NCBI GenBank assembly: GCA_965202805.1
Contig: OZ241869.1
Location: forward strand, 1,152,001-1,216,000
DNA: 64,000 nt
Source of the DNA: Longimicrobiales bacterium
GTDB taxonomy: Bacteria > Gemmatimonadota > Gemmatimonadetes > Longimicrobiales > Gaopeijiaceae
Direction: 5' to 3'
Positions 8,816 through 26,481 of this stretch are shown here, piece by piece; position 1 is the stretch's first letter; each line of letters opens with the position of its first letter. A program made the translations under genes and the position numbers. The notes beneath the pieces are model-generated. The model worked only from the letters and a program-made list of their open reading frames with translations. It was not told the DNA's origin and did not search any database.

Positions 8816-9819
8816 GGATCGGGGGCACCAGCGGTGCGGTTCTCCCGCAGAAACTCCTCCGCTCCCTCCGGCAGGAACAGCTTGTCCGAGATGTCCGCAA
8901 TCTCCTCGGCCTCTTCCCAGGCCTTCTGCAGCAGCCAGAGTTCGCCCTCGAGAGCGCGTCGCTCCTGCTCTTCGTGGAGCGCCATCTCAAGGGCGAGCTT
9001 GTGGGGCTTCGGCATCTTGTTGACGTAGCCGGGGACGCCCTTCCTGTCCTGGAAGCGCTGGCCCTCCGCGATTCGGGCCAGAAAGTGTTCCGGATGGCCT
9101 GTCGTCTCGATCAGACCCACGGCATCCTGCACCGTGTCCTTGCTCCCGCCCGTGCGGTTCATCCTGGGCAGGATCGCCCCGGCGAACCGGCGCGCCTCAC
9201 TTCCCTTGTACCAGGTCTTCTTCCTCTTTTTCCGCACCTGAAGCCTGAATCCCTGTTCGTCGTCCGACGGACGGACACGAGTGCCGAGCAGGTCCTGCTG
9301 ATTGAGCTTCACGACGCCCCCGCCGGCGGGGTGAAGCTTCACGAGGGTTCGCCGGCTGTTCCACAGGTTGAACCAGTTCGGAATCTGACTGATCACGCCT
9401 GCGCTCAGGCCCGCGGCAGCTCCGCCGACCACGATCCCGCCCACCACCGCAATCCCGGCCGCCCCGTACAGGATCGCCCGCCGACGGCGCCGCCCGAACT
9501 GGTCCCCGTAGCGCCAGGCCGCGAACTCGGGCCGCTGCGGCTTGCCGATGCGCACCAGCGTCAGCCCCTCCGGATGGCGCGCCAGGCCGATGTTGTCGGT
9601 GGAGACGCGGATGCGGGTGTCGCGGAAGAGGCGCTCGCAGTCCTCGACCGCCTCCCAGCGCTCCTCCAGCGGGGTGAGGTTCCAGCGCTCGCATTTCGTG
9701 CACACGACCCAGAGGCGGCCCCGCGCGGCGTCGAAGGCCAGACGCCGCCCGACCGGGAACGACTCCACGACCTCGTTGGTCCCCAGGGGCTTGTGGCAGA
9801 ACATACAGGAGGTGTACAC
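8812..9819 (-). CDS. Hypothetical protein with N-terminal CxxC...CxxC zinc-ribbon and one TM segment
   Basis: CMFC and CTKC motifs; central hydrophobic stretch; convergent 4-bp stop overlap with the PQQ gene. Confidence 0.75.
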   Translation of the reverse strand: MYTSCMFCHKPLGTNEVVESFPVGRRLAFDAARGRLWVVCTKCERWNLTPLEERWEAVEDCERLFRDTRIRVSTDNIGLARHPEGLTLVRIGKPQRPEFAAWRYGDQFGRRRRRAILYGAAGIAVVGGIVVGGAAAGLSAGVISQIPNWFNLWNSRRTLVKLHPAGGGVVKLNQQDLLGTRVRPSDDEQGFRLQVRKKRKKTWYKGSEARRFAGAILPRMNRTGGSKDTVQDAVGLIETTGHPEHFLARIAEGQRFQDRKGVPGYVNKMPKPHKLALEMALHEEQERRALEGELWLLQKAWEEAEEIADISDKLFLPEGAEEFLRENRTAGAPDP

Positions 9820-11290: not shown

Positions 11291-12045
11291 AGGGGATGGC
11301 CGGGCGACACGCCGGACCTGCGCACGAGGGGGTGGCGGTCGAGAGGTCGGCGGACTCGGTTGGCGCACCCCGGCTGACGGGGCGCTCCCCTGGCATGTGC
11401 CTGTTTCTCCTGGCCACCGCCTGCTCCCCTGCCCCGGCCGGCCCCGACCCCGCCCTTCTGGAGGCGATTGACTGGTACACCGGGGTGGCCGGAACCGTTG
11501 ACGATGTCCGGGCCCGCGAGTTGCTGGAGCAGGCGGTTGCGGAAGGGGGGCCGCTGGCGCAGATGTGGCTGGCGCGCGTCCACTCGACGGGGCGGATGGG
11601 CTTTCCCCGCGACGAGGAACGGGCGCGCGAGATCGCCGCGGAGATCATCGCGGAAGTGGAGCGCGCGGCCGGGGCGGGCGTGCCGGAAGCCGTCTTCCTG
11701 ATGGGAACGGCCTACGACGAAGGGCTGGGCAAGCCGGTCGATCCGGCCCGGGCCGCGACCTGGCATCGCCGCGCCGCAGAGCTGGGGCACGTGCTCGGAG
11801 CGCACAACCTGGGGAACCAGTACGCAGCCGGACGAGGTGTCGAGGAGGACCACGCCCTGGCGGCGGAATGGTGGCTGCGGGCCGCCGAGCGGGGGGACGC
11901 CATCACCCAGCTCAGGCTCGGCGAGGCGTACGAGGCCGGGCAGGGGGTTCCCCTCGATCCGGAGCAGGCCCGGGAGTGGTACGGGCGGGCCGCCGCGGCG
12001 GGAAACGCGCAGGCGGCCGAGGCGCTGGAGCGGTTGGAGGGTTAG
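11287..12045 (+). CDS. Sel1-repeat protein, probable lipoprotein
   Basis: Repeated A(Q/H)xxLGxxYxxGxGVxxDxxxAxxW..AA..G units; LLATAC lipobox; start at 11287 or 11395. Confidence 0.85.
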   Translation: MKGMAGRHAGPAHEGVAVERSADSVGAPRLTGRSPGMCLFLLATACSPAPAGPDPALLEAIDWYTGVAGTVDDVRARELLEQAVAEGGPLAQMWLARVHSTGRMGFPRDEERAREIAAEIIAEVERAAGAGVPEAVFLMGTAYDEGLGKPVDPARAATWHRRAAELGHVLGAHNLGNQYAAGRGVEEDHALAAEWWLRAAERGDAITQLRLGEAYEAGQGVPLDPEQAREWYGRAAAAGNAQAAEALERLEG

Positions 12046-12148
12046 GGCGTCGGCGTCGGCAAGGGCGGCTTGGGAAGCACTGTGGTGCGTTCGATAGGCA
12101 TCCTTCTGGTTGCAAAATAACGCCGCAACCGTCATTTTTCCCGTCAAT

Positions 12149-13312
12149 ATGACGACTCTGCCGCGATTTCTCGACGTTCCGCAGGGGAGCTTCTTCCTTT
12201 TCGGCCCACGTGGGACGGGCAAGACGACCTGGCTGCGCGAGAAGCTTCCGGACGCGCTCGTATTGGATCTCCTGCGCGCCGAGGAGTTCCGTCGATTCGC
12301 AGCTCGCCCGGAGCGGTTGCGTGAGCTGGTCCGCGCCGCGCCGCCCGGCGGTGATGTGGTGGTTGACGAGATCCAGCGCGTCCCCGAGCTCCTCAACGTG
12401 GTGCACGAACTGATGGAGAGCGGAAAACGGTGGCGGTTCGTGCTGACCGGGTCGAGCGCCCGGACGCTGCGCCGCGGGGGGGTCAACCTCCTGGCGGGCC
12501 GCGCGATCATGCAGACGATGCACCCCTTCATGGCGGGGGAACTGGGATCCAGGTTCGACCTGCGGACTGCCCTGACGCTCGGAACCGTCGCGACCGTCCT
12601 TTCCTCCGACGATCCGGCGTCGGCGCTCGCCGCGTACGCGACTCTCTACGTCGAGCAGGAAGTGCGCGCCGAGGGCCTGGCCCGGGACATGGGCAGTTTC
12701 TCGCGGTTCCTAGAAGCCGCCGCATTCTCCCACGCGGCGACGCTCAACGTGAGCGAGGTCGCCCGCGAATGCGAAACGAGCCGGTCCACCGTCTCCGGCT
12801 ACCTCGAGTTGCTCGAGGATCTCCTGCTGGCGTTTCGCCTTCCCGTCTTCACGCGGAGGGCGAAGCGACGCCTCGTCGCACATCCCCGCTTCTTCTACTT
12901 CGACTGCGGCGTATTCGGGAGCCTGCGTCCCTCAGGACCTCTCGACCGGCCCGAAGAGATCGCCGGTCCGGCTCTTGAGGGGCTGGTCGCGCAGCACCTG
13001 CGCGCGTGGCTGGCGTATTCGGGGGCGGACGGAACGCTGTACTACTGGCGCACCCGGGCGGGCGCCGAGGTCGATTTCGTTCTCTACGGGTCACTCGGCA
13101 TCTGGGGTATCGACGTCATGCACGCCGACCGAATACGTCCGGCCGATCTCCGGGGACTCCGGGCCTTCGGCGACGAGTATCCCGAGGCCCGCCGGCTGCT
13201 GCTGTACCGGGGCGAACACCGGCTGGTGCGAAAGGGCGTGCTCTGCCTTCCGGTCGATGGGTTCCTGCGAGGGCTGAATCCCGCCAGGGCATTGGACGAC
13301 ATAGTCGGATAG
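12149..13312 (+). CDS. AAA+ ATPase (AAA_14) with C-terminal DUF4143
   Basis: GPRGTGKT, VVVDEIQR, LTGSS, LAGRA, YYWRT...EVDFV. Confidence 0.9.
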   Translation: MTTLPRFLDVPQGSFFLFGPRGTGKTTWLREKLPDALVLDLLRAEEFRRFAARPERLRELVRAAPPGGDVVVDEIQRVPELLNVVHELMESGKRWRFVLTGSSARTLRRGGVNLLAGRAIMQTMHPFMAGELGSRFDLRTALTLGTVATVLSSDDPASALAAYATLYVEQEVRAEGLARDMGSFSRFLEAAAFSHAATLNVSEVARECETSRSTVSGYLELLEDLLLAFRLPVFTRRAKRRLVAHPRFFYFDCGVFGSLRPSGPLDRPEEIAGPALEGLVAQHLRAWLAYSGADGTLYYWRTRAGAEVDFVLYGSLGIWGIDVMHADRIRPADLRGLRAFGDEYPEARRLLLYRGEHRLVRKGVLCLPVDGFLRGLNPARALDDIVG

Positions 13313-13373: not shown

Positions 13374-13520
13374 TCAAGTCAGATCCCGCAGCCAGATTTC
13401 GGGCTGGCCCCTCAGGCTGACCGCTCCAAGGACTCGAAGATCGAGCGTCGCAATCGCGCGTGCCTCCAGGCGCTCGGCCACGGCCATGACGACGCCGACC
13501 ACCAAGCCCAGGTTCTCGCG
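13374..13520 (-). pseudogene. 3' remnant of a PIN/VapC-type toxin gene
   Basis: LGLVVGVVMAVAERLEARAIATLDLRVLGAV resembles the PIN C-terminus (LGxVDxxxxAxAERL...IATLDxRHF) with degraded catalytic positions; no 5' half present. Confidence 0.6.
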
Positions 13521-13522
13521 GC

Positions 13523-16500
13523 CTAATCCAGCAAACCGGCCAGTGCTGAAGCTCCCTCGAGGGCCGCGTCGGACCGTACCAGTTCCCGCCGCCTTGCGCC
13601 GGATAGCCACGTCACTCGGCTGCCTGTCGCGCTCCGTGTGACGGCGAGCACGTCTTCGATCTGCTCCGCGACGGCGCCGACATGGGAGATCACGCCCACC
13701 ATCCGACCCTTCCCTGCCACCATCGAGAGCGCCTCGATGGCGGAATCGAGGTTGTTGCGGTCCAGCGATCCGAAGCCCTCGTCGAGGAAGAGCGATTCGA
13801 GGCGGCCGCCGCTCCGGGCCATCATCTCCACCATCCCGAGCGCCAGCGCCAGCGACCCGATGAACTGTTCCCCGCCCGACAGGCTGGCAGGGGAGCGCGC
13901 CTGCCCCGAGTCGTTGTCGACGACCAGCCACTGCTGGTCCGCCAGATCCCCGGGGTCAGCGAAAGCGTAGCGGCCCGCTGTCATCTCCTCCAGCATCTTC
14001 GAAGCGTACACCAACAGGTCCCGCGAACGCCGCAACGTGAGCCACTTGAGGAACGCACCCGGCTTGAGTGCGGCGTCGAGATCGCCCAGGGCGAGCTCCA
14101 GCGCCGCGACCTCGTCGGTGGTCCGTCGGAGTCTCACGAGATCGTCGAAGATTGCGGCGAACTGGTCCCGGCCCCGCGTTGCGTCCCGGGCGGCGTAGCC
14201 TGCTTCGCTGGCCGCTCGACCGGTGGATTGAACCAGAGCCTCCAGATCGGTGGGGTCGGCGGGAGGGTCCAGTTGCCCCGCGACCGTCCGGGCTTCGCGA
14301 CGGGCCTCGTCGGCGGCAGCGAGAGCGTGGCGGCGACGGTCCACCGCCAGCTCCAGTACCTCACCCATCGTTTGGCGGACGCGACCGATGCCTTTCCCGA
14401 GCGTCGCCGCATCCACGGGGTAGTGAATGGCTGCCGGGATCGTGATTTCGGCAGCCAACTCGCGCACGGCTTCCGCAAGAGTGGTTCGGTGTTCGCCGAG
14501 TTCGCGAACGATGTCCTGCAAAGGCCTTTCGACTTCGGTCTTGCGGGTCTCACCGAGATGCTTCTGCGCGGTCCTCGCCTCCTCGATTTCCTTGAGCAGG
14601 CGGTCCCGCTCCCGTTGGCGCAACTGAAGGATCTTCTCGCGCTCCCGTGCCGTGTATGAGGCGCGGTCAACTGTTGCGGTGTCGACCGTCTCCAGCTCCG
14701 CTGGATCGGAGGGAAGAACCAGCCGAGGGCGGAACGCCGGGACGACGGATTGGATGTTCCCGTGGAGAGCGTCGAGAGCGTCGCCGGCGGCGGTGCGGGT
14801 GCTGTCGATGTGGCTCCTCGCGTGATCGAGTGTCTGCCGGGCGGAGTTTTCCTCAACCTGGGCAGCTGTTTGCGCCTTGCGTAGCTCTTCGGCCTCAATG
14901 CGGTGATCGCTCAGCTTCGTTTCGGCTTCGCGGAGGCGCTGTCCGGCCGGGGCGAGAACCTGCTCCGGGTCCGGCAGCGGGGCGTCCTGTAAGGGCGGAA
15001 AGGCGTCGTCCAGCCCGGCAGCGTCGCGAAGGTGGCCGAGTGCGCCGACGATCTCGGATCGGAGGGCGTCCAGACTCCTCGTGGTGCCTGCGATCCCTTG
15101 CCGGACGGACCTCTGCTGCGCCTTGAGATCGGCCACTACGTTGCTCGCCTCCCCGGCTTGTGACCTCGCTGTCTTGTCGGCCTCGCGCGCCGCATCCAGA
15201 CCGGTGTCCTGTGGTGGTGTCCAGCATTCGGGGAGGTCGCGCTGGCAGACGGGACATTCGTCGCCCGGACAGAGACCATGGGCCGCAGCTGCGGCAGCGT
15301 TGGTGCGTTGCGCCTCGCTCAGTTCCTGCTCGGCTCGTCGCAGGCGCTCTTGCGCCTCCTGGAGATCACGCTGCGCGTTGACAAGCTGTGCCCGGACCCT
15401 GTCCAGCTCCTGCTCCTGCCCGGCCAACGCCTCCTCCTCCGAGCGGATGCGCGCCCGCAGGTCCCGGCACTTCTCGTACCAGCGCTCGGCCTTCGCCAAA
15501 AGCCCGGCGGCGGCTTTGGCCGCTTCAAATAGCGGCGGCTCCAGCCCCTGGTGCCGGGCCAGCTCATCTCCTGCCGATTCGAGGGCCTGCCGGGCCCGGG
15601 CTTGGCGCTTCTCCGCCCCGACCTCGCCGGCGATCGCTTCACGCAGCTTCCGGGCTGCCCTGACCGCCCGCTCTACCTCATTCGGGATCGCGTCCAGCGT
15701 GGCGAGGGTACGCGCGATCTCGTGATGGTCGGGGCCGTCATCCGTGGGAATGCCGTTCAGGTCTCGCTTCAGGCCGGCCTCCCGCCGCTCCAGTTCCGTC
15801 GCTTCGGCATCCATCCGGCGCTGCGCACTATCCAGGGGCGCCAGCCGGTCGGCCATTTCGTCCATCGCCAACGGGGTCACGCGCTCGCTTGCACGCCGGG
15901 CGGCTCCGACTCTTTCCTCGGATCGACGGATGACATCACGAGCCTGCCTGGACCGGTCCCGAAGATCGGTCAGAGCATCCGCCTCACGGCTCGCCGCGTC
16001 GGCCTGGGCGGTGAGCCCCGCAAGGTGCACCTCGGGATCATCCGGATGGCGCCCCACTTCGTCGTGCAGTCGCACAGCCAGCGTCTTGACTTCGGCCAGT
16101 CGCTGCCCTGCCGCCTCTCCCGCCGCCTCCAGATCCTGGGTGCGCCACACCTGGCGCAGGATCTCGGTGCGGGCGGACGGCGCGTCTTCGACCAGGAGGC
16201 GGGCGAAGCGCCCCTGTGGCAGGATCACGGTGCGCAGGAACGCATCGCTGTCGAGACCGATCAGCGCCCGTACCCGCTCGTTGACCGGCCGGACCTGCTC
16301 GACCTTCTCGATCGTCTCGCCCTCGGGCCCGTAGCGAACCAGCTGCGCCTGAGCCGGTCGGAGTCCGCCTGCACCCGACCTCCGGTCGACCCGCGCCACC
16401 TCCCACTCCTCACCGGCCACCCGGAAGCGCAACACCACGCGCATCACGTCCGACGTGTCGTTCATCAACTCCTGCTTGGATCGGCCCCCGAGAGAGGTCT

Positions 16501-16654
16501 GTCCGTACAGGGCGTACGTCATCGCCTCGAGGATGGAGGACTTTCCCGCGCCGGTGTCGCCGATCACCGCGACCTGGGTGCGGTTGCCGAAGTCGATCCC
16601 GACCTCGGCCCGGAAGGAACGCAGTCCCTCAATGCTGATTCGAAGTGGTCGCAT
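13523..16654 (-). CDS. sbcC: SbcC/Rad50 SMC-family ATPase
   Basis: Walker A GDTGAGKSS, Q-loop LPQGRF, CPVC zinc hook, LSGGE, LFLDEGFGSLD, ISH; long coiled coils. Confidence 0.93.
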   Translation of the reverse strand: MRPLRISIEGLRSFRAEVGIDFGNRTQVAVIGDTGAGKSSILEAMTYALYGQTSLGGRSKQELMNDTSDVMRVVLRFRVAGEEWEVARVDRRSGAGGLRPAQAQLVRYGPEGETIEKVEQVRPVNERVRALIGLDSDAFLRTVILPQGRFARLLVEDAPSARTEILRQVWRTQDLEAAGEAAGQRLAEVKTLAVRLHDEVGRHPDDPEVHLAGLTAQADAASREADALTDLRDRSRQARDVIRRSEERVGAARRASERVTPLAMDEMADRLAPLDSAQRRMDAEATELERREAGLKRDLNGIPTDDGPDHHEIARTLATLDAIPNEVERAVRAARKLREAIAGEVGAEKRQARARQALESAGDELARHQGLEPPLFEAAKAAAGLLAKAERWYEKCRDLRARIRSEEEALAGQEQELDRVRAQLVNAQRDLQEAQERLRRAEQELSEAQRTNAAAAAAHGLCPGDECPVCQRDLPECWTPPQDTGLDAAREADKTARSQAGEASNVVADLKAQQRSVRQGIAGTTRSLDALRSEIVGALGHLRDAAGLDDAFPPLQDAPLPDPEQVLAPAGQRLREAETKLSDHRIEAEELRKAQTAAQVEENSARQTLDHARSHIDSTRTAAGDALDALHGNIQSVVPAFRPRLVLPSDPAELETVDTATVDRASYTAREREKILQLRQRERDRLLKEIEEARTAQKHLGETRKTEVERPLQDIVRELGEHRTTLAEAVRELAAEITIPAAIHYPVDAATLGKGIGRVRQTMGEVLELAVDRRRHALAAADEARREARTVAGQLDPPADPTDLEALVQSTGRAASEAGYAARDATRGRDQFAAIFDDLVRLRRTTDEVAALELALGDLDAALKPGAFLKWLTLRRSRDLLVYASKMLEEMTAGRYAFADPGDLADQQWLVVDNDSGQARSPASLSGGEQFIGSLALALGMVEMMARSGGRLESLFLDEGFGSLDRNNLDSAIEALSMVAGKGRMVGVISHVGAVAEQIEDVLAVTRSATGSRVTWLSGARRRELVRSDAALEGASALAGLLD

Positions 16655-16658
16655 TCGA

Positions 16659-17966
16659 TCAGTCGCCCACCTGATGACCCGGTTCACCCGTGTGCGGTCT
16701 GTCGCGTTGCCCGGCCGCACCGCCTCCCGATCCGCCGCGCAATGCGGCGAGGACGTCCTCGGCACGCATCGTGAGCTCGGTCAATCCGAAGTCCGGTCCA
16801 TCCTCGTCCCCCGCGCCGGCCACGGCCTCGCGAAAGAGTGCCAGTACCGTGTCCCGGGGCGCTTTCGTCGCCTTGCCCGTCGCCGCCGTGCCCCGCCATT
16901 CGACAAAGAGATCTTCAATGGAGGGCTCGTCGCTGTCCTCCGCCCCGGAGATCGCCTTGACGGACCGGTTGGCCACTTCGTTCACCAGGTTGAAGATCAC
17001 GCACCCCGGGGACCACTCGGCCACCCGGTCGGCCAGCTCGGGAATCGGATCGTCGGACTTGACGACGGCCTTGAGGAAACACCCGTCCAATGCGCCGTTC
17101 GCCGCGCGCGCCTCCAGTTCGTACAACGTCCCGGCGAAGCTCTGCAGCGGCCGCCCCGGGGGCAGTTCCCGTTCGCGGATCCGGACGTCGTCGCCGATCG
17201 TGACCACGACCGCGTGCTTGGTCTGTCCGCCCTCGCCGTAGTCCAGCGGGATGAGCGACCCGGCGTAGCGGCCGCGCGCGCTGCCGGGAAGCTGCTGAGG
17301 GTCGTGGATGTGCCCGAAGGCGCAGTAGAGCGCGCGGTGCAGACCCTTCGTGTGCGTGGCGTGGTCCTCGCCGACCGTGAACCGCCGTTCGGAGTTCCCG
17401 GGACGCGCCCCGTCGACGTGCAGGTGCGCCGCGTAGAGGACGATGCCGTGCGGGCCTGCAACCTCGCGCGCGCCGCCGATCACATGGTCGTTGAGGTTGC
17501 GGATGCCATCGGCGTAGTCGCCCTCGAAGCGCGAGGCGTCGCCGGTGGCGTAGTCGGTGATCGCGCCCGGCGGGATGAAGGGAACGCAGGCGAGGGCGAC
17601 GGGCACCTCCGCGAGGGCGTCGAACTCCAGGACGCGCGGCGAGGTGACGAACCACAGGCGGCGGGGCGAGGCCATGCCCGCCATATCGTCGAGTACGTCG
17701 AACAGGGCGCCCGAGTCGTGATTGCCGCCGATCACCACGGTCGGTGCGATCTTCGCAAGCCGCTGGAGGGCCGTGACACCGAGACGCAGCGCCGGGTACG
17801 GAGGCCGGTAGGCATCGAAGAGGTCGCCCGCGTGAACGATCAGGTCGGGGCGCTCGGAGGCAGCCACGTCCAGCAGCGCACGCAGCGCCGCCTGGTGATC
17901 CTCCATCCTGTCGTGGCGTCCCAGCTTCGCCCCGAGGTGCCAGTCGGCGGTGTGAAGCAGCTTCAC
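16659..17966 (-). CDS. sbcD: SbcD/Mre11 nuclease
   Basis: HTADWHLG, AGDLFD, GNHD, GHIH metallophosphoesterase motifs. Confidence 0.93.
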   Translation of the reverse strand: MKLLHTADWHLGAKLGRHDRMEDHQAALRALLDVAASERPDLIVHAGDLFDAYRPPYPALRLGVTALQRLAKIAPTVVIGGNHDSGALFDVLDDMAGMASPRRLWFVTSPRVLEFDALAEVPVALACVPFIPPGAITDYATGDASRFEGDYADGIRNLNDHVIGGAREVAGPHGIVLYAAHLHVDGARPGNSERRFTVGEDHATHTKGLHRALYCAFGHIHDPQQLPGSARGRYAGSLIPLDYGEGGQTKHAVVVTIGDDVRIRERELPPGRPLQSFAGTLYELEARAANGALDGCFLKAVVKSDDPIPELADRVAEWSPGCVIFNLVNEVANRSVKAISGAEDSDEPSIEDLFVEWRGTAATGKATKAPRDTVLALFREAVAGAGDEDGPDFGLTELTMRAEDVLAALRGGSGGGAAGQRDRPHTGEPGHQVGD

Positions 17967-17975
17967 GGCGCTTCC

Positions 17976-19838
17976 CTACAACTCGACCTTCGAGCCCGAC
18001 ATGGCGGTCAGGTTGGTGATGATCGTGTCCGTGCGCTTCCGGTCCCGCGCGTCGTCGGCTTCGGCCTCGTCGGGGTTGGTGGCGTACGGCGGGAAGGGAA
18101 AGCGCAGCGGGATCGGCTCGGGCACGATCGGCTGGGACAGCACCATGGTCCCCGGCATGAAGCGTGACGCGCGCTCGCGAAGCGCGGAAGACAGGAAGCG
18201 GTAGGCGTCGGCCTCGTTCGCGTCGAGCCGTCCGGCCACCTTGAGCGATGCGTTGCGGGGGAGCGCCGGAGCAACCGCTGAAGCGGCCTGTTGCGCGCCC
18301 ACGAGGAGCACGCCCAGGGAGCGTCCGCGCTCGGCGATGTCGACGAGCAACTCCCGCAGCGGCGAGTAGCCCTTCGCGGGAGCATACTTGTTGAGTTCGT
18401 CCAGGACTACGAACCGCAGCGGAACGCGCCCCGTCCCCTGCTTCTCGCGCCACACCCCGTCCAGCAGTGAGCCCACCACAAAGCGCTGGGCGTCGTCGTG
18501 CAGGGTGGAGATGTCGACCACGTGCAGGCGGGCGTTCTCCGACGACACGGGCTTGAGGCCGCAACCGATCAGCGGCCCGATGTGCTTGCGGAGCCGGAGC
18601 AGGCGGCGCAGGTATGCCTGGCGCGTGCCCGACTGGGTGCGCCCGAACCAGGCCTTGAGGGTCTCGTCGTCGTCCCGGTTGGCCATCTTCTCGGTGAAAT
18701 CGACGAAATCCCCGAAGTCCTCCAGAACGTGGCCGGCGCCCGCACGCACCGACTCCGGTTCTCGAGCCGCCAGCCGGTCCGGATCAAAGCTCGTGTCCTC
18801 CGGGACGGTCGGGAGGATTACCACCGCGCCCGACTCTCCGCCCTCCATGCGGCGAAGGTGTCGCAGAAGCTGAATGCGGAACTGCTGTTCTATGAAGCCG
18901 ACCTGGGTCGAGCGGTCGTCCTCGGACGTGAAGCAGAACTGGAGGAGCTGGTCGCGGATGAACTGTTCCGGGGTCCAGCCGTAGGCGTGCACATCACCGG
19001 TGTCGCGGGACTTGACGCCGGGCACCCTCCCCGAGACGCCGGGCCGCCGGGGTGCGTAAAGGCGCACCGAGCGGAAAGGGCCGGGATCGGCGACGCCCAG
19101 GGCGCGCCACTGAGTGCGCGCGTCCGGCCTGCCCGGAAACTCCGAGTTCGGGCGATCGAGGTGGAGCAGATCCTCTCCCTTGGTGTTGAAGACGAGCGCG
19201 CGCACGTTCTGGCGCTCGGCACGCCCTCCAAGCAGCGCCATCCCGCCTTCGGTCTCCAGGAGCTGGTAGAGAATGTACAGCGCGTACGAGGTCTTGGTCG
19301 CGACGCCCGAGATACCCGAGATCGAGAAGTGCCCACCGGAACGCCCGTCGACGAAGCGCATGTCCGCGTAAAGGGGCTTGCCCCCCATGTCCACGCCGAC
19401 GGGGAGCTTGCCGCGCTTCATCTCGTCCTCGAACAGGGCGATCGTGCGGTCCTGACCCACGGCGCGCATGGCCACCGAGCCCGCGTCCGGGGCCACGAAG
19501 AGCTCGGGAACGACGCGCAGCACCCGCACCTCGGCCAGGCGCACGTGCTCGGCAGGCAGGATGCGATCGACGACCCGGGCCGTGTCGGAGGGCAGCTCGG
19601 CGCCCTCGAACCGGCTGCGCAACTCGGTGACGATTCCGTAGTGGGTGACCTCTTCCCCGTCGGGGAGTTCGTTGCGCACCGCGACCAGCTGGTCCAACTG
19701 CACGTGCGCGCCGGGATCGAGCACCACCTGGAACTCGCGCGAATTGCTGCCGTGCGCGCCGTCCACCAACCCGATCCGCGGGTCCGGCACCGTGCTGTCG
19801 TCGTCGCTTCCGGTCATCTGGCCCTCCTGGTCGTTCAC
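17976..19838 (-). CDS. herA: HerA-family ATPase/DNA translocase (N-terminal HAS-barrel-like region)
   Basis: Variant Walker A SGISGVATKTS, VFNTKGEDLL, Walker B FVVLDELNKYAP, RGRSLGVLLVGAQQ. Confidence 0.85.
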   Translation of the reverse strand: MNDQEGQMTGSDDDSTVPDPRIGLVDGAHGSNSREFQVVLDPGAHVQLDQLVAVRNELPDGEEVTHYGIVTELRSRFEGAELPSDTARVVDRILPAEHVRLAEVRVLRVVPELFVAPDAGSVAMRAVGQDRTIALFEDEMKRGKLPVGVDMGGKPLYADMRFVDGRSGGHFSISGISGVATKTSYALYILYQLLETEGGMALLGGRAERQNVRALVFNTKGEDLLHLDRPNSEFPGRPDARTQWRALGVADPGPFRSVRLYAPRRPGVSGRVPGVKSRDTGDVHAYGWTPEQFIRDQLLQFCFTSEDDRSTQVGFIEQQFRIQLLRHLRRMEGGESGAVVILPTVPEDTSFDPDRLAAREPESVRAGAGHVLEDFGDFVDFTEKMANRDDDETLKAWFGRTQSGTRQAYLRRLLRLRKHIGPLIGCGLKPVSSENARLHVVDISTLHDDAQRFVVGSLLDGVWREKQGTGRVPLRFVVLDELNKYAPAKGYSPLRELLVDIAERGRSLGVLLVGAQQAASAVAPALPRNASLKVAGRLDANEADAYRFLSSALRERASRFMPGTMVLSQPIVPEPIPLRFPFPPYATNPDEAEADDARDRKRTDTIITNLTAMSGSKVEL

Positions 19839-20833
19839 GCGGCTTCCTCCTCGCGGTTCAGCTGCATGACGGCCTCGCGTACGGCGCGCAGGGCGAGCCG
19901 GGAGTCGCCAAGCAGGTGGTGAAGATGGCGCTCAAGCTGCCCGACCGGCGTAAGGTTGACCGGGGCACGAGCATCCCGGTGCAGTGCCGACGCGAAGGCC
20001 GGGAGCCACTGGGCGGCGCTGTCCACGGTCGCAATGGCCTGGTCGCGCCCGGCACTCATCGGCACCTCGATGCGCGCGATTCCCGCCCAGGGCCCGGCCC
20101 ACGGACCGGGATCGCCCACGCGAATGTAGCACGCGTACAGATCGTCCCTTATGGCGAACATGCTCGACCTCTCGCCCACACCGACACGCGGCACCCTTTG
20201 CCACTGCTCGATCACAAGCGTGCGGCGGTGGTGGGTCTTGACGTATCCGACCACCGGTGTCGTGCGGCTTCGGCGTATGCTGTGGAGTGGCCCGTCGAAC
20301 ACGGTCAGCCGCCCGTCCGCGAGGAGCCGATCGGCGACCTCGGCCTCGGTGTCTCGCATTATGCGCTGAAGGTGCCGCGCTGCGGCGTCGGGCTCGTCGC
20401 TGTCGACCGAAAGAGCCGCCCATCGCCATCCGCCCGCATGTGGACGCAGGCGCACCTGGTGTCCATCCGAAAAAATGACTGCTCTCCCGGTCGCTACGTG
20501 GGAGATCGCGGCGGGTCTGCCCGGCTCGATCAGCACTGCTCCCGCGCCCCACGCGCCCGCGATCCCCGTCGTGGTCTCGCCTGCGGGATTCGTCCGCGTG
20601 AGGTGCGCCTCGGTCCGGCGCACCCCGTCCACGAAACAGATGCGCGGAGGGCGACCCGCGTCCGGGGGTCTGTGGATGCGAAACGCGCCTCCATTCTCGA
20701 CCACACGGCACTCCACCGTATGGGTCTCGTCCTCACCGGCACGAAACCCCGCGCCGTGGGACGCGTCGAAGGGCTCAACTCCGACGAAGGCGCGGTCCGG
20801 CGTACGAATATCCCGAATGTGAAACCCCCTCAC
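19835..20833 (-). CDS. nurA: NurA-like nuclease
   Basis: FVDGVRR, VFDGPL, VGYVKTH, RAPVNLTPVGQLE motifs; GTG start overlaps the aroF stop; directly upstream of herA. Confidence 0.8.
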   Translation of the reverse strand: MRGFHIRDIRTPDRAFVGVEPFDASHGAGFRAGEDETHTVECRVVENGGAFRIHRPPDAGRPPRICFVDGVRRTEAHLTRTNPAGETTTGIAGAWGAGAVLIEPGRPAAISHVATGRAVIFSDGHQVRLRPHAGGWRWAALSVDSDEPDAAARHLQRIMRDTEAEVADRLLADGRLTVFDGPLHSIRRSRTTPVVGYVKTHHRRTLVIEQWQRVPRVGVGERSSMFAIRDDLYACYIRVGDPGPWAGPWAGIARIEVPMSAGRDQAIATVDSAAQWLPAFASALHRDARAPVNLTPVGQLERHLHHLLGDSRLALRAVREAVMQLNREEEAA

Positions 20834-21879
20834 GCCGTCTGGCGGACCTCCGCGAGCGGCGCCACCAGCGGCCGGCCGATGTGCTCGGCGATCCCGCGCA
20901 CCTGCGCCATCATCTCGACGAACTGCTCCGGGTAGAGCGACTGGGCTCCATCCGAGAGTGCCCTCGGCGGATCGGGATGCACCTCCACGATGAGGCCGTC
21001 CGCCCCGGCGGCGACCGCGGCGCGAGCCATGGGCGTCACCTTGTCGCGAATGCCGGTGCCGTGGCTGGGATCGGCGATGATGGGCAGGTGCGAGAGCGAC
21101 TGCACCACCGGGATCGCCGTCAGGTCGAACAGGTTGCGGGTTTCGGTGTCGAAGCTGCGCACCCCCCGCTCGCACAGGATGATGTTCGGGTTGCCCTCGG
21201 AGAGGATGTATTCAGCCGCGAGCAGCAGCTCCTTGATGGTGGCCGCGAGGCCGCGCTTCAGCAGGACGGGCCGCGGCGATCGTCCCGCGCGCCGCAGCAG
21301 TGGGTAGTTCTGCATGTTGCGGGCGCCGATCTGCACGATGTCGGCGTACTCCTCGACCGCATCGAGGCTTCTCACGTCAAGAGCCTCGGTCACTATGGCG
21401 AGACCGGTGGCTGCGCGGGCGCGCGCCAGAAACCTGAGGCCCTCGACCTCCAGCCCCTGGAACGAGTACGGCGAGGTGCGCGGCTTGTAGGCGCCGCCGC
21501 GCAGGATGGTGGCCCCCGCCTCCGCCACCCGCTCGGCCGCTTCCATGATCTGCCCCTCCGACTCGACCGAGCAGGGGCCGCCCATCACGGCGATCTCGCG
21601 CCCGCCGATGACGGTGCCGTTGGCGAGCGTGACCACGGTGTCTTCCTCGCGCCACTCTCGCGACACCTGCTTGTAGGGGCGGCTGACCGGGATGATCTCG
21701 AGGACCCCCGGGAGTCCCACCAGGCGGGCCTTGTCCACCCGCCCGTCGTTCCCGACCAGGCCGATTGCCGTGCGCTGGCGGCCGGGCATGGGATGCGCCT
21801 GGTATCCCATCGCGTGGATGGTGCCCACGGCCCCCTGGACGTCCTGGGCCGTGGCGTTGTGCTTCATGACGATGAGCAT
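20830..21879 (-). CDS. aroF: DAHP synthase (class I-beta with N-terminal regulatory domain)
   Basis: GPCSVE, RGGAYKPRTSPYSFQG, QIGARNMQN, DPSHGTG, EVHPDP..ALSDG. Confidence 0.95.
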   Translation of the reverse strand: MLIVMKHNATAQDVQGAVGTIHAMGYQAHPMPGRQRTAIGLVGNDGRVDKARLVGLPGVLEIIPVSRPYKQVSREWREEDTVVTLANGTVIGGREIAVMGGPCSVESEGQIMEAAERVAEAGATILRGGAYKPRTSPYSFQGLEVEGLRFLARARAATGLAIVTEALDVRSLDAVEEYADIVQIGARNMQNYPLLRRAGRSPRPVLLKRGLAATIKELLLAAEYILSEGNPNIILCERGVRSFDTETRNLFDLTAIPVVQSLSHLPIIADPSHGTGIRDKVTPMARAAVAAGADGLIVEVHPDPPRALSDGAQSLYPEQFVEMMAQVRGIAEHIGRPLVAPLAEVRQTA

Positions 21880-21982: not shown

Positions 21983-24900
21983 CTATGCAGACGCACCCGC
22001 TTCGAGGCGAACCCCTACCACCGAACTCACCCCCGGCTCCTCCATGGTCAGCCCGTAGATCCAGTCGGCCGCCTCGATGGTGCGCGGATTGTGGGTGATC
22101 ACCACGAACTGGCTCTGCTGCTTGAACTCTCGCAGAAGCTGAACGAAGCGGTCAATGTTGCTCTCGTCAAGCGGGGCATCCACTTCATCGAGCACGCAGA
22201 AGGGGCTCGGCTTCACGAGGTATATCCCGAAGAGCAGCGCGAGGGCGGTAAGCGCCCTCTCTCCCCCCGACAGCAGATCGATGCGGCGGGTCCTCTTGCC
22301 CATGGGAGAGGCGTGGATGTCGACGGGCCCTCCGAGGGGGTCATCCGGGTCGCCCAGACGCAGGTCGCACTCTCCGCCCTCGAACAGGCGCTGGAAGATG
22401 TTGCGGAAGTTCCCGCGCGCCGCTTCGAAGGTTTCGAGGAAGAGCCTGGTGGCGGTCTGGTCGATCTCGCGGATGGCGGCGCGCAGGTCGTTGCGCGCCC
22501 GCTCGAGGTCGTCGCGCTGCCCGGTCAGGAAGTTCAGGCGCTCGTTCTGTTCCGCGTGCTCTTCGATGGCGAGCATGTTGACCGGTCCGAGGCGCTCGAT
22601 CGACTGAACGAGCCCGGCCAGCTCCTCCTTCAGCTCGCCGGGGTCTCCCTCGACCGGTTCCGCCATCTCGACCAGCCTCTCGAAGGGACGCGCCCACTCC
22701 GTCTCCACGCGCTCGCGGATGAGAACGATCTTCCCGCCCAGCTCCTGCTCCTCCAGGTTCAGGTCGTGATGCCGGTCGGAGGCGGCCCGCTCGGCCGCGC
22801 GTGCGGCGTCGACCCTCCGGTCGGCATGCCTGACCTCCTCTCTCGCCCGCTCGAGGGTCGCGTCATCCTCCGCGAGCCTCCCGCGCGCGCGGTCGCGCCG
22901 CTTGAAGAGCCGCTCGACGGCCTTGCCCCCGCGTGCGAGCAGCGCCCGGGCTTCGGCCACCTCGCGGCCAAGCTGCCCTTCCTCCTTCTCCAGCCGCGCG
23001 AGCTGTGAGGAGGCCTGCGCCTCCGCCCTGCCCAGATCGCCCAAGCGCTCGTCGGCGCGCGCGAGTTCGCCCTCCTGCTGATTCGACTGGATGGCGAGCC
23101 GGGCCTCGTCCACGCGTGCGCGCTCCCAGTCCCCCTCCGCCACCTCGAGCACCTCGGCGGCCCGTTCTCCACGACGGCGCAGGGCGGCGGCTTCGGCGGT
23201 GAGGCCTTCCAGTTCCTCCCGCTGTGCGTGCTCCCGGCCGGTCGCGGCGGCGACGGCTTCCCGGGTGTCGCGGACGCGCCGTGCGAGGTCGTCGCTGTCC
23301 CGTGTCAGCCGGGTGCGACGCTCCTCCTGCGTGCTTCGGTCCGCCCGGGCGGCGCGCAGGTCGTCTGCGGCGCGCGACAGGGCCGCGCGCCGCTCCCCGA
23401 GCACCTTCTCCGCCCGCTCGACACGCGCCTGCGCCGCCTCGCGCGCCCCCCGGGCGCGCGAGGCTTCCCGGGTGGCGGCGACGGCGGCCTCCTCGAGGGC
23501 CGCGAGCTTGCCGCGGCGTTCGAGGAGGCCGGCCGTCCCCGCGGGGTTGCCCACGACCACCACGCCGCGCGCGTCCACCGACGCGGGCGGGCGGTCCCGC
23601 CCGGGCGTCCCGGCCGCTCCGGCGGAGTCCAGAGGCTCGATGCGCTCCACTCCGGCCAGAAGCACCCGCACCCAGGGAGCGCCCGGGCCCTCCGGGCGAA
23701 GCCCGCCCAGCAGCGATCCCGGTGGACCCGCCTCGGCGGCCTCGTCGAGCGGGAGGAGGACGATCCCTCCGCCCTCCGACCACTCCTCGGCGAACCACCG
23801 GCGCAGGCGCGCGGCGGCCTCGCCGTCCTCCACCAGCAGCGCCTGGGCCAGATGCCCCAGGTACGATTCCGCCGCGCTCAGCGCGCCGGCCGGGCCCGCG
23901 ATGCACTGCGACAGCGTGCCGAGCACGAGATCCGGACGCGCCTCGCGGGCCGCCCGCACCACCGGCTCGTAGCCGACCCCATCCCGCTCCATGGTCTCGA
24001 GGGCGCTCCGCCGGGCCGCAAGCCCCGAGGCCTGGTCGGCCGCCTCCACTTCGGCGGCTCGCGCCCGCACCTGCGCACTGCGTGCCTCCTCGAAGTCCCG
24101 CAGCCCCTCGTCCACCTTTGTACGGGCCCGCGCTGCCGAAGCCTCGAGGCGGCCCATCCGGTCGTCGGACTCCCCGCCCTCCCGGCGCATGCCGGTCAGT
24201 GCGAGCTCGGTCTGCGAGGCACGTTCCTCGAGCCGGACCAGGCGACCACGCAACTCGTCCACCCGGGTGCGCGAGGCGCCCACGGTCCCCTCCATGCCGG
24301 CCACCCGGCGCAACAGTCTCCGTTCCCTGCCGCGCACTTCTGCGAGCGTCGCGCGCGCTCGCCTGAGCCGTTCCCTCGCGCGCGCCGTAACCTGCCGCGC
24401 CTGCCCCGCCTCCGCGCGCACTTCGGCCAGTTCGGCCGCGGTCCGGGCGCGCGACCTCCGCAGCTCGGCCAGTTCGCGCGCCAGTTCGCCGGAACGCCGG
24501 CCCGCCACCTCCTGATCCTCGCCGATCTGCCCCAGTCGCCGATCGGCGTAGACGATGCGCTCGCGCGCAACCGCCAGGTCCCGCTCCCAGCGCACCAGAT
24601 CCTTCTGGATGCTGCCGAGTACTCCCGCCGCCTCGGTGCGCGATTTCTCGGCCTCCAGGCTTCGCACCCGCGAGGCCTCGCGCTCGGTCTCGGCCGTCCG
24701 GAGCTCGATCAGCGTCGCCTGCTGCGCCTCCTGCTCGCGCGCGAGCAGCTCCCGAACCTTCGTCAGGCGATCCTCGAACTCGACAAGGTCCGCCGACACC
24801 ACCGCGACCTCAACCGACAGGCGTCGCTTCCTCAGGCCGTGGTAGCGCTGTGCCTTTCCCTTCTGGCGCGCCAGGGAGCGGACCTTGGTCGCCACCTCCG

Positions 24901-25486
24901 CGATAACGTCCTCCAGCCGCTCCAGGTCCAGCTCCGCCCGGGCAAGCCGCTGTCCCGCGATCCGGCTCCGGTCCTTGTACTTGCCGATGCCCGCAGCCTC
25001 CTCGAACAACCCGCGGCGCTCTCCCGCCCGCTCCGAGAGAATCGCGTCGATCATGCGGCTCTCGATGATCGCGTAGGCGTTGGCGCCCAGTCCGGTGTCC
25101 CGGCACAGCTCCTGGACGTCGCGCAGGCGACAGGTGGTGCGGTTGATCGAGTACTCGCTGCCGCCATCGCGGTACACCGTGCGGCCGATCTCGACTTCGC
25201 CGAAGGGAACCGGGAGCAGCCCGTCCTCGTTGGTGACCCGGAGGATGACCGATCCGCGGTTGATGGGCCGCCGATGGACCGTTCCCTGGAAGATCACCTC
25301 CTCCATGCGCGAGCCGCGTACGACCGTGGGACGCTGCTCGCCAAGCACCCAGCGAACCGCGTCGCTGATGTTGGATTTTCCGCAGCCGTTCGGGCCCACG
25401 ATCGCGGTAATGCCCTCGTGAAACACGATGTCGGTCCGTTCGGGAAACGACTTGAACCCGTGCAGGCTGAGCGAGGCGAGCTTCAT
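21983..25486 (-). CDS. smc: Chromosome segregation protein SMC
   Basis: GFKSF, GPNGCGKSN, FEEAAGI, LGPVN, LSGGE, PFCVLDEVDAPLD. Confidence 0.96.
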   Translation of the reverse strand: MKLASLSLHGFKSFPERTDIVFHEGITAIVGPNGCGKSNISDAVRWVLGEQRPTVVRGSRMEEVIFQGTVHRRPINRGSVILRVTNEDGLLPVPFGEVEIGRTVYRDGGSEYSINRTTCRLRDVQELCRDTGLGANAYAIIESRMIDAILSERAGERRGLFEEAAGIGKYKDRSRIAGQRLARAELDLERLEDVIAEVATKVRSLARQKGKAQRYHGLRKRRLSVEVAVVSADLVEFEDRLTKVRELLAREQEAQQATLIELRTAETEREASRVRSLEAEKSRTEAAGVLGSIQKDLVRWERDLAVARERIVYADRRLGQIGEDQEVAGRRSGELARELAELRRSRARTAAELAEVRAEAGQARQVTARARERLRRARATLAEVRGRERRLLRRVAGMEGTVGASRTRVDELRGRLVRLEERASQTELALTGMRREGGESDDRMGRLEASAARARTKVDEGLRDFEEARSAQVRARAAEVEAADQASGLAARRSALETMERDGVGYEPVVRAAREARPDLVLGTLSQCIAGPAGALSAAESYLGHLAQALLVEDGEAAARLRRWFAEEWSEGGGIVLLPLDEAAEAGPPGSLLGGLRPEGPGAPWVRVLLAGVERIEPLDSAGAAGTPGRDRPPASVDARGVVVVGNPAGTAGLLERRGKLAALEEAAVAATREASRARGAREAAQARVERAEKVLGERRAALSRAADDLRAARADRSTQEERRTRLTRDSDDLARRVRDTREAVAAATGREHAQREELEGLTAEAAALRRRGERAAEVLEVAEGDWERARVDEARLAIQSNQQEGELARADERLGDLGRAEAQASSQLARLEKEEGQLGREVAEARALLARGGKAVERLFKRRDRARGRLAEDDATLERAREEVRHADRRVDAARAAERAASDRHHDLNLEEQELGGKIVLIRERVETEWARPFERLVEMAEPVEGDPGELKEELAGLVQSIERLGPVNMLAIEEHAEQNERLNFLTGQRDDLERARNDLRAAIREIDQTATRLFLETFEAARGNFRNIFQRLFEGGECDLRLGDPDDPLGGPVDIHASPMGKRTRRIDLLSGGERALTALALLFGIYLVKPSPFCVLDEVDAPLDESNIDRFVQLLREFKQQSQFVVITHNPRTIEAADWIYGLTMEEPGVSSVVGVRLEAGASA

Positions 25487-26481
25487 CGGGCGAAGAACCC
25501 GCTCACCCACGCCAGGAGGTTCTCGAACAGGTCCCGGAGCCGGCCGGCTCCGGGCACGTCGGCAATCCCGGCATTGTCGATCCCCATCAGGATCATCAGC
25601 GCCGCGAACAGGACCAGCACCACGAACGCCGCGATGCTGAGGCCCCGACCCCGTTCGTGGGAGACAGTCACGGGCTCCGGGCCGTCCGGGGGCTGCGCGC
25701 GGGCGGTTGCCGCGGCTGCCGGAGCCGGCTCCGCTTCGGCCACGGAGGGGTCGTCCTCTTCCGCGTCGTCATCGAATCCCTGCCACAGCGAGGCTCTGTA
25801 CGTCTGCTTGCCGAGGCGGTTCCGTCCCTTCCCGGTCGCCATCGTGACGGAAGTACCATTGGGCGCCGGACCCAGCAGAGCGATGGCATCCCTGAGTCCC
25901 ACACGTCCCAGCACGCCCATGGGTTCGCCCTTGCAGGCAAGCACGATCGAAGGGGTGCCGCGCGGATGGAAGGGCGATTCGGCAGCCTGATAGGTGACGA
26001 CCATGACGCCGCGCTCGACCAGGGTCGCAAGAAGACGATGCCACGCGGGCCGGTGGAGCAGGCGGCGCGGACTCGCCACGGGAGTCCCCGCCGTGGCCAC
26101 CCAGAAGCTCCCGTCGTTGGCGGGGCGCGCGATTCGCCTCAGGGAAGCGCCGTACTCGATGGCGTCGCTGATACCCTCGAGGTTTCCGCTGTTGAACGCC
26201 CGGTGCAGATGGGGCTCGTCGAAGCACAGGTCGACGAGCAGCACGCGTGCTCCCCGGGAGGCCCAGTTCCCCGCGATCGCCACCGCGGCGTGGACCGCCC
26301 AATCCTTGTGGCGTGCCCCGGAACTGGCCCGGACCTCGACCAGACGCCCATGCTCCGGGCCGACCGGAAGGTCGAGTTCCAGGATGTCGGAGAGGGTGTC
26401 CCGGGAATAGTCGAAGGGCTGCAACTGCAGCGCAGCATTGCCGCGTTCGGATCCCGCGGATGCGTCACCGCGGGGGGTCAT
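25483..26481 (-). CDS. Hypothetical membrane-anchored protein with degenerate MinD/ParA/BY-kinase-like domain
   Basis: GARVLLVDL...P.LH..F....EGISD pattern without an intact Walker A; acidic linker; C-terminal TM helix. Confidence 0.65.
   Translation of the reverse strand: MTPRGDASAGSERGNAALQLQPFDYSRDTLSDILELDLPVGPEHGRLVEVRASSGARHKDWAVHAAVAIAGNWASRGARVLLVDLCFDEPHLHRAFNSGNLEGISDAIEYGASLRRIARPANDGSFWVATAGTPVASPRRLLHRPAWHRLLATLVERGVMVVTYQAAESPFHPRGTPSIVLACKGEPMGVLGRVGLRDAIALLGPAPNGTSVTMATGKGRNRLGKQTYRASLWQGFDDDAEEDDPSVAEAEPAPAAAATARAQPPDGPEPVTVSHERGRGLSIAAFVVLVLFAALMILMGIDNAGIADVPGAGRLRDLFENLLAWVSGFFAR

Follow-up and report, generated by a model that had tools for sequence, protein, structure and literature searches.

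In archaea, the genes for HerA, NurA, Mre11 and Rad50 are linked in one operon, in the order herA-mre11-rad50-nurA. The same four protein families are encoded by the element studied here, a nurA-herA-sbcD-sbcC operon within a stretch of 64,000 nucleotides (hereafter the window) from a Longimicrobiales bacterium of the phylum Gemmatimonadota (assembly GCA_965202805.1, contig OZ241869.1, positions 1,152,001 to 1,216,000); the window's proteins, however, are of the bacterial type, and their host has other routes of DNA-end resection (an AddAB-like pair and RecJ). The four-gene arrangement itself is already known from a bacterium, since in Oceanithermus profundus sbcD and sbcC are described downstream of nurA-hepA, hepA being herA (Blesa et al. 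2017, PMC5448004), and earlier papers (Iyer 2004, Constantinesco 2004, Fujii 2018, Cheng 2015) may hold prior descriptions of bacterial four-gene clusters. As far as the published description goes, the Oceanithermus cluster is one stable recruitment, whereas here two differently ordered versions alternate and move between genera and phyla. It is this version history that is new.

The NurA-HerA pair of Deinococcus radiodurans (PDB 7F6D, 7WRW, 7WRX; PMC9960219), as described, shares the Walker A and B motifs, the NurA fold and three catalytic residues with the window's proteins. Its genes are treated in that account as an operon of their own, whereas the window's operon has a HerA type without the equivalents of R495 and R552, in a host with AddAB. 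A HerA ring joined to an enzyme partner is likewise described for the anti-phage systems Sir2-HerA and DUF4297-HerA; nevertheless, the window has neither a Sir2 nor a DUF4297 partner, and the PADLOC models of these systems gave no match to its HerA.

By comparing the window's operon with its counterparts in related genomes, we found that it is an intact bacterial operon for NurA-HerA plus SbcCD, and that its version, A, alternates with a deeply diverged version, B, in one chromosomal slot. The explanation that we prefer, at roughly even confidence, is that of a back-up DNA-end machine that replaced an equivalent resident operon in place. A literature search at title level found no published account of such in-place swapping or of a HerA clade without the two arginines; these two, the former with gene stumps as evidence, constitute what is new.

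Composition of the operon

Genomes are coded G and loci L; G000 is the window's genome (4.02 Mb, a single contig), g1 its genus and g37 the sister genus. Percentages are protein identities to the window's module unless stated otherwise. The four genes lie on the minus strand, i.e. nurA at 19835..20833, herA at 17976..19838, sbcD at 16659..17966 and sbcC at 13523..16654. These coordinates had been given by an earlier, sequence-only reading and were confirmed on the sequence, as were the GTGA overlaps at aroF/nurA and nurA/herA and the remaining gaps of 9 and 4 bp. The four-component call of that reading also stands, a NurA fold match having been obtained for 19835-20833 and SbcD and SbcC having been recovered by profile search.

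NurA, a 5'-3' nuclease of bacterial type, passes the Pfam threshold narrowly (PF09376, 23.8 bits, cut-off 21), and a profile of 18 NurA relatives matches Deinococcus NurA at 1.3e-45. The AlphaFold model (predicted local distance difference test, pLDDT, 83.7) would place the protein closest to the NurA structures of D. radiodurans (7F6D; Foldseek E 6.6e-16, template modelling (TM) score 0.66) and Thermotoga maritima (1ZUP; E 2.2e-15), with archaeal NurA structures at E 9e-5 or worse. Its residues D69, K199 and R289 align with D53, K201 and R309 of the D. radiodurans protein (DrNurA), which are described as catalytic in Deinococcus (PMC9960219), and together with D180, in a second DG motif, they are invariant in 18 of 18 aligned sequences.

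HerA, a hexameric DNA translocase of the Deinococcus type, has no match in Pfam or NCBIfam. It matches D. radiodurans HerA (DrHerA) at E 1.5e-106 with an identical Walker B and an identical Walker A, GISGVATKT, so that the Walker A earlier read as a variant is normal for this subfamily. Archaeal HerA is absent from the PDB matches at E 0.001. The Walker A residues K182/T183 (K175/T176 in DrHerA; PMC9960219), D223 (equivalent to the catalytic D220) and the Walker B residues D480/E481 are invariant in 17 of 17 sequences, and the ratio of nonsynonymous to synonymous substitution rates (dN/dS) of the gene is about 0.11. The two pore arginines, on the other hand, separate the versions: arginine at the R495 position occurs in 0 of 84 A-type HerA proteins versus 24 of 24 of B, while R552 is missing from all 84 of A, the loop being two residues shorter, and is kept in 23 of 24 of B. 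Since the best matches of both HerA and NurA are bacterial, an archaeal import was rejected; the closest structures are those of Deinococcus and Thermotoga.

SbcD, the Mre11-like nuclease, exceeds its family cut-off (TIGR00619, 127 bits versus 77.65), carries the five motifs DWH, GD, GNH, H and GHIH, and is the sole sbcD match in G000. SbcC, the Rad50-like ATPase, scores 190 bits against TIGR00618, under the cut-off of 478.5; it contains the AAA_23 domain, a coiled coil, the CPVC zinc hook and a complete split set of ABC ATPase motifs (Walker A, Q-loop, LSGGE, Walker B with LDEG, H-loop). All four genes are under purifying selection (dN/dS below 1 in 11 of 11 pairs tested). Of 80 related loci, 63 contain the four in this order, with only a short sbcC match in two of them, in contrast to a 2026 review, in which bacterial nurA is without such synteny.

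Within the unit we found neither a sigma-70-like site nor an excess of terminators, and a simple spaced-word count over 78 upstream regions yielded no common promoter or damage box upstream of nurA of version A. The operon would be read from the upstream housekeeping unit, because no room for a promoter is left. The co-transcription of the four genes, the cooperation of their products and their biological role are what we infer. As a separate observation, made by eye, a motif resembling TGTCATGATCTGTCA recurs upstream of nurA in many Vicinamibacterales loci (L062-L096), and is a possible operator.

Two versions in one slot

Every genome of g1 (19 of 19) has exactly one module, which is of version B in 15 and of version A in four (G000, G001, G014 and G015). 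Version B is arranged herA-sbcD-sbcC-nurA, the archaeal order, and differs strongly from the window's version (HerA 40-42%, SbcD about 32% and NurA about 33% identical). In all 15 B genomes its herA lies directly 3' of aroF, the gene for 3-deoxy-D-arabino-heptulosonate-7-phosphate (DAHP) synthase. Two junctions are unassembled, i.e. the aroF side in G015 and the downstream side in G014. A module is thus present throughout the genus, while version A is confined to 4 of 19 genomes; among family members of other genera (first sample, n = 18) HerA was matched in two, one of them marginally. As an equivalent module occupies the same site in 15 of 19 genomes, the operon was not appended to smc-aroF, as had been proposed, but represents a replacement rather than an addition. 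For the same reason the earlier term 'acquired' holds for this version, on the basis of trees and identities, but not for a new function.

In a tree of RpoB plus RpoC from 17 g1 genomes (G004 and G015 were left out), the A carriers are nested among the B carriers and form no clade (approximately unbiased (AU) test, p = 0.011; two changes). The A carrier G014 is sister to the B carrier G011 with modest support (82/80); RpoB/C of the two share 98.7% identity and AroF about 100%. Between G018 and G016, RpoB/C are 98.3% identical but NurA only 78% and SbcC 60%, and aroF is 99% identical between G005 and G018.

Probable source of version A and replacement in place

The window's HerA nests within a clade of the sister lineage (tree of 102 sequences, duplicates dropped). 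Relative to six genomes of that lineage it is 91-93% identical, with a synonymous divergence (dS) of 0.32-0.46, compared with 75-76% and 0.87-0.99 for RpoB/C. The usual places of version A in the sister lineage are the gap between glyS and nfuA and the site behind a gene resembling those of TonB receptors (labelled susC). Only one of the 80 loci has smc-aroF upstream of A, and that one is a repeat of G001; a donor site adjoining aroF was rejected, since in the five sister-lineage genomes searched over 600 kb separate aroF from the module. The gap between glyS and nfuA that holds A in many of these genomes is empty in G000 (G000:C1:1151880-1152210, at the left edge of the window, before nfuA at about 211-786) and lies some 13 kb from the module.

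Within g37 the module was found in 22 of 24 genomes, 16 times as A and six times as B, with B at the same two sites as A. Ten g37 loci carry stumps of herA of version B directly before nurA of version A. At the susC site about 22 herA-B codons remain between a hairpin and nurA-A in six A loci (clear in four, decayed in two), and in four further A loci 4-5 codons are left. In G154 and G409 the same hairpin is followed by an intact B. These stumps are direct evidence that in the sister genus B was replaced by A in place. The sequence comparisons point to a transfer of A from the sister genus to g1, a direction that we infer; the direction in which B was exchanged between the genera is a polytomy in the tree. 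Under this history B would be ancestral behind aroF in g1, and A would have come from the sister genus and then been passed between species by recombination in the conserved flanks.

The versions extend well beyond the two genera. One genus of family f7 contains two A-type modules and four of a further version, and A occurs at 73-77% HerA identity in Acidobacteriota, Spirochaetota, an alphaproteobacterium and Latescibacterota, often on megabase contigs, with RecA at 57-63% identity in five of five such cross-phylum carriers. In one recipient order 15 of 201 genomes have a match (seven of A, eight at 41-44%). Close copies were not found on plasmids (four records, all at 42% or less) or on viral contigs (10 loci, all at 36% or less), so that a search for a plasmid or phage vector gave none.

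Several single loci deserve mention in their own right. In G035 (L111:6596-13795) a nurA of version A (64%) precedes herA, sbcD and sbcC of B, forming a chimera. The B genome G270 retains a 3' piece of herA-A (83%) elsewhere, beside an AAA+DUF4143 gene (L211:9910-10125). In a locus from Spirochaetia (L090), nurA-herA of A is accompanied by an additional module of a different type, which is inverted and faces it. Three nearly identical A-type herA copies occur in a single Vicinamibacterales record (L068, L070, L072), with sbcC broken or missing in two, possibly an assembly artefact.

Distant relatives of the module

A HerA match (E 1e-15 or better) was obtained in 282 of the 401 genomes sampled in the phylum, and it mostly belongs to a distant type, C, of about 30% identity. 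In the two largest families sampled a HerA match is present in 155 of 166 (f4) and 79 of 95 genomes (f5), a tally that includes the unpublished genome G240, which enters no other result. In nine type C loci examined, herA has a NurA-like gene (hhalign 99.3%; PDB 1.4e-6) before it and, as far as the contig extends, sbcD-sbcC after it. Both pore arginines are absent from type C HerA (0 of 8). Between herA and sbcD these loci have a gap of about 0.5-1.1 kb (L114:7599-8102, L115, L223-L227), which in L114 and L115 contains an unannotated gene of 154-168 amino acids, with no Pfam match in L114.

Junctions, flanks and codon usage

The upstream flank consists of smc (21983..25486, minus strand; ATG at 25486, Pfam SMC_N 4.5e-63), which is conserved in g1, and aroF (20830..21879, minus strand; Pfam DAHP_synth_1), the fixed border of the swappable slot. 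The distance between the aroF stop and a conserved anchor is 23 nt in G000, compared with 121 nt in G014 and 14 in G001, which both have an ATG. Measured against G014, about 98 bp have been lost by a deletion specific to G000, which took the native ATG of nurA and left an in-frame GTG; it is because of this deletion that aroF and nurA overlap.

Downstream, at 13374..13511 (minus strand), lies a remnant of the PIN-domain gene vapC, comprising its last 44 codons (84% identical to an intact copy), vapB and the 5' part of vapC having been deleted; G001 (A) and G011 (B) have the whole vapBC pair. The decayed toxin noticed earlier at the end of the operon is thus a real vapC tail, but the supposed edge of an accessory region is not there, since the Sel1-repeat gene sel1, a DUF819 gene and a 335-aa open reading frame (ORF) are conserved in g1. 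The sel1 gene (11395..12045, plus strand) is the fixed downstream flank; like RpoB/C it stays with its genus, and the possibility that it travels with the module was discarded, the G000 copy grouping with its own genus. Between it and the remnant a convergent AAA+DUF4143 gene (12110..13312, plus strand), similar to the PADLOC candidate PDC-S01 and found in some g1 members, is one of 22 DUF4143 matches that, with 21 PIN matches, are scattered over the 4 Mb of G000.

The A/T-richer third codon positions noticed in sbcC are real, its G+C content at these positions (GC3) of 0.79 ranking among the lowest 3% in a crude call of 2215 genes, with nurA as low (2nd-3rd percentile) and herA and sbcD average. 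They do not, however, mark an acquisition. All 17 Gemmatimonadota carriers measured, the donor lineage and resident B included, have an sbcC GC3 of 0.79-0.84, and the GC3 of nurA is equally low in the donor lineage; low GC3 is therefore uninformative on transfer.

Some further observations concern the locus and its surroundings. In G015 a DUF4268 gene (PADLOC PDC-S11, E 2e-126) lies between sbcD and sbcC (L110:7900-8856), and herA is split into two matches. Two ORFs of the window (8812-9819 and 25483-26481) are conserved in the genus and have no Pfam match, the first with a CxxC-rich N-terminus. Sequencing runs labelled as sponge metagenomes, from two studies, contain at least half of the window's words (five rows).

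Biological role

By analogy with the Deinococcus and E. coli homologues, SbcC-SbcD would find and open blocked or hairpin DNA ends, whereupon the HerA hexamer would load on the end and feed the DNA into a NurA dimer, which would trim or destroy it; binding of the NurA dimer by the HerA hexamer, with mutual activation, is predicted on the same grounds. G000 has an AddB-AddA pair (G000:C1:3448684-3456976, with a PIN gene close behind) as well as RecJ, which implies that resection does not chiefly depend on the module. An AddA-like helicase is present in 16 of 16 g1 and 17 of 17 g37 genomes searched, and the idea that the module stands in for an absent AddAB was rejected. The module would rather supplement AddAB and RecJ, serving chromosomal ends in a back-up capacity and also attacking unprotected foreign linear DNA. 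A housekeeping role of this kind is suggested by the single module per genome, the near-universal type C, the place behind a housekeeping unit, the lack of close plasmid and viral copies in the records searched, and the lack of a PADLOC system match. Nevertheless, several observations weigh against a back-up machine that replaced its equivalent. At the window's own site only weak matches of 9-10 nt to the start of nurA-B were seen, the stumps being known from the sister genus. A single entry of A into g1 is not rejected with NurA, HerA and SbcD together (AU test, p = 0.25), whereas it is with NurA alone (p = 0.0005), so that A may have entered once or several times. In six A loci whose 8-kb flanks are complete (L024, L039, L042, L054, L055, L056) no matching sbcD accompanies nurA-herA, so that the partnership of the four genes is not obligatory. 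The A-type HerA lacks both arginines, either of which, when mutated alone, is described to abolish 5' resection by DrHerA, and deletion of nurA-herA in D. radiodurans is described to raise resistance to ultraviolet light and mitomycin C, a misfit with a simple repair role (both PMC9960219).

A repair back-up appears the likeliest role, with an anti-phage role as its close rival. The latter, that the module is mainly an innate anti-phage and anti-plasmid nuclease destroying incoming linear DNA, with the slot as a defence hotspot, we consider possible though doubtful; the swaps would then occur because the end-protecting inhibitors of phages are version-specific. It would account for the repeated in-place swaps, for the mosaicism of whole modules and single genes (the G018/G016 divergence, the G035 chimera), for the spread across phyla at HerA identities above those of RecA, and for the better survival of damage by the Deinococcus deletion mutants (PMC9960219). 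An antiviral role has been proposed for archaeal HerA-NurA (PMC12977600), and SbcCD is described as being inhibited by TelN, in a species-specific manner, and by lambda Gam (PMC12624138). Of 80 loci, 31 have a passenger, either a toxin-antitoxin or an AAA+DUF4143 gene, that lies in the module or no more than two called genes away from it; the corresponding share at random sites is roughly 5-12% (a baseline from G000 alone, for PIN and DUF4143 only). The inserts match the PADLOC candidates PDC-S11, PDC-S01 and PDC-M24B. PADLOC, on the other hand, has no system model that fits the four genes, only generic ATPase matches being returned. Typical defence islands accumulate systems, whereas these modules do not, there being one per genome, and type C is near-universal in two large families in a fixed order. 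Exchange is moreover not special to the module: the helicase part of AddA is 96% identical to that of G011 versus 73-75% to that of equally close kin, which suggests a likewise recent exchange.

The exchange of AddA and of flank genes across species (aroF of G005 and G018) also agrees with a neutral turnover, in which A and B are equivalent, recombination is free across species and genera, and passengers settle at any operon end; the richness of G000 in PIN and DUF4143 genes, one PIN gene lying close behind addAB, is in line with this. We regard it as improbable, given that a 7-kb operon was swapped for a differently ordered one of 30-41% identity, at two or more sites and in two or more genera, the old copy being removed each time, which would be hard to achieve by drift, and given that sel1 and RpoB/C keep to their genus. 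The loss of both pore arginines from every A-type HerA, when either mutation is described to disable DrHerA, could alternatively mean a change of mechanism in version A, with a HerA that has ceased to pump DNA through the pore and instead serves NurA and SbcCD as an ATP-gated switch or scaffold. The invariant ATPase motifs and the low dN/dS of HerA speak against such a change, as does type C, which is also without both residues, so that other residues may serve; its probability appears slight. A more far-reaching proposal joins parts of these, namely that NurA-HerA-SbcCD is an innate immune module destroying linear DNA, existing in deeply diverged versions that are traded in place across genera and phyla in dense host-associated communities to evade phage end-protection proteins, with A having a different grip on DNA; we put it forward as a speculation that is more probably wrong than right.

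The role of bacterial NurA-HerA is openly disputed, and G014 (A) and G011 (B), near-identical species with different versions at the same site, constitute a natural allele pair for a test of repair versus defence. If it is true that the swapping tracks phage inhibitors, a textbook repair module would join the immune systems.

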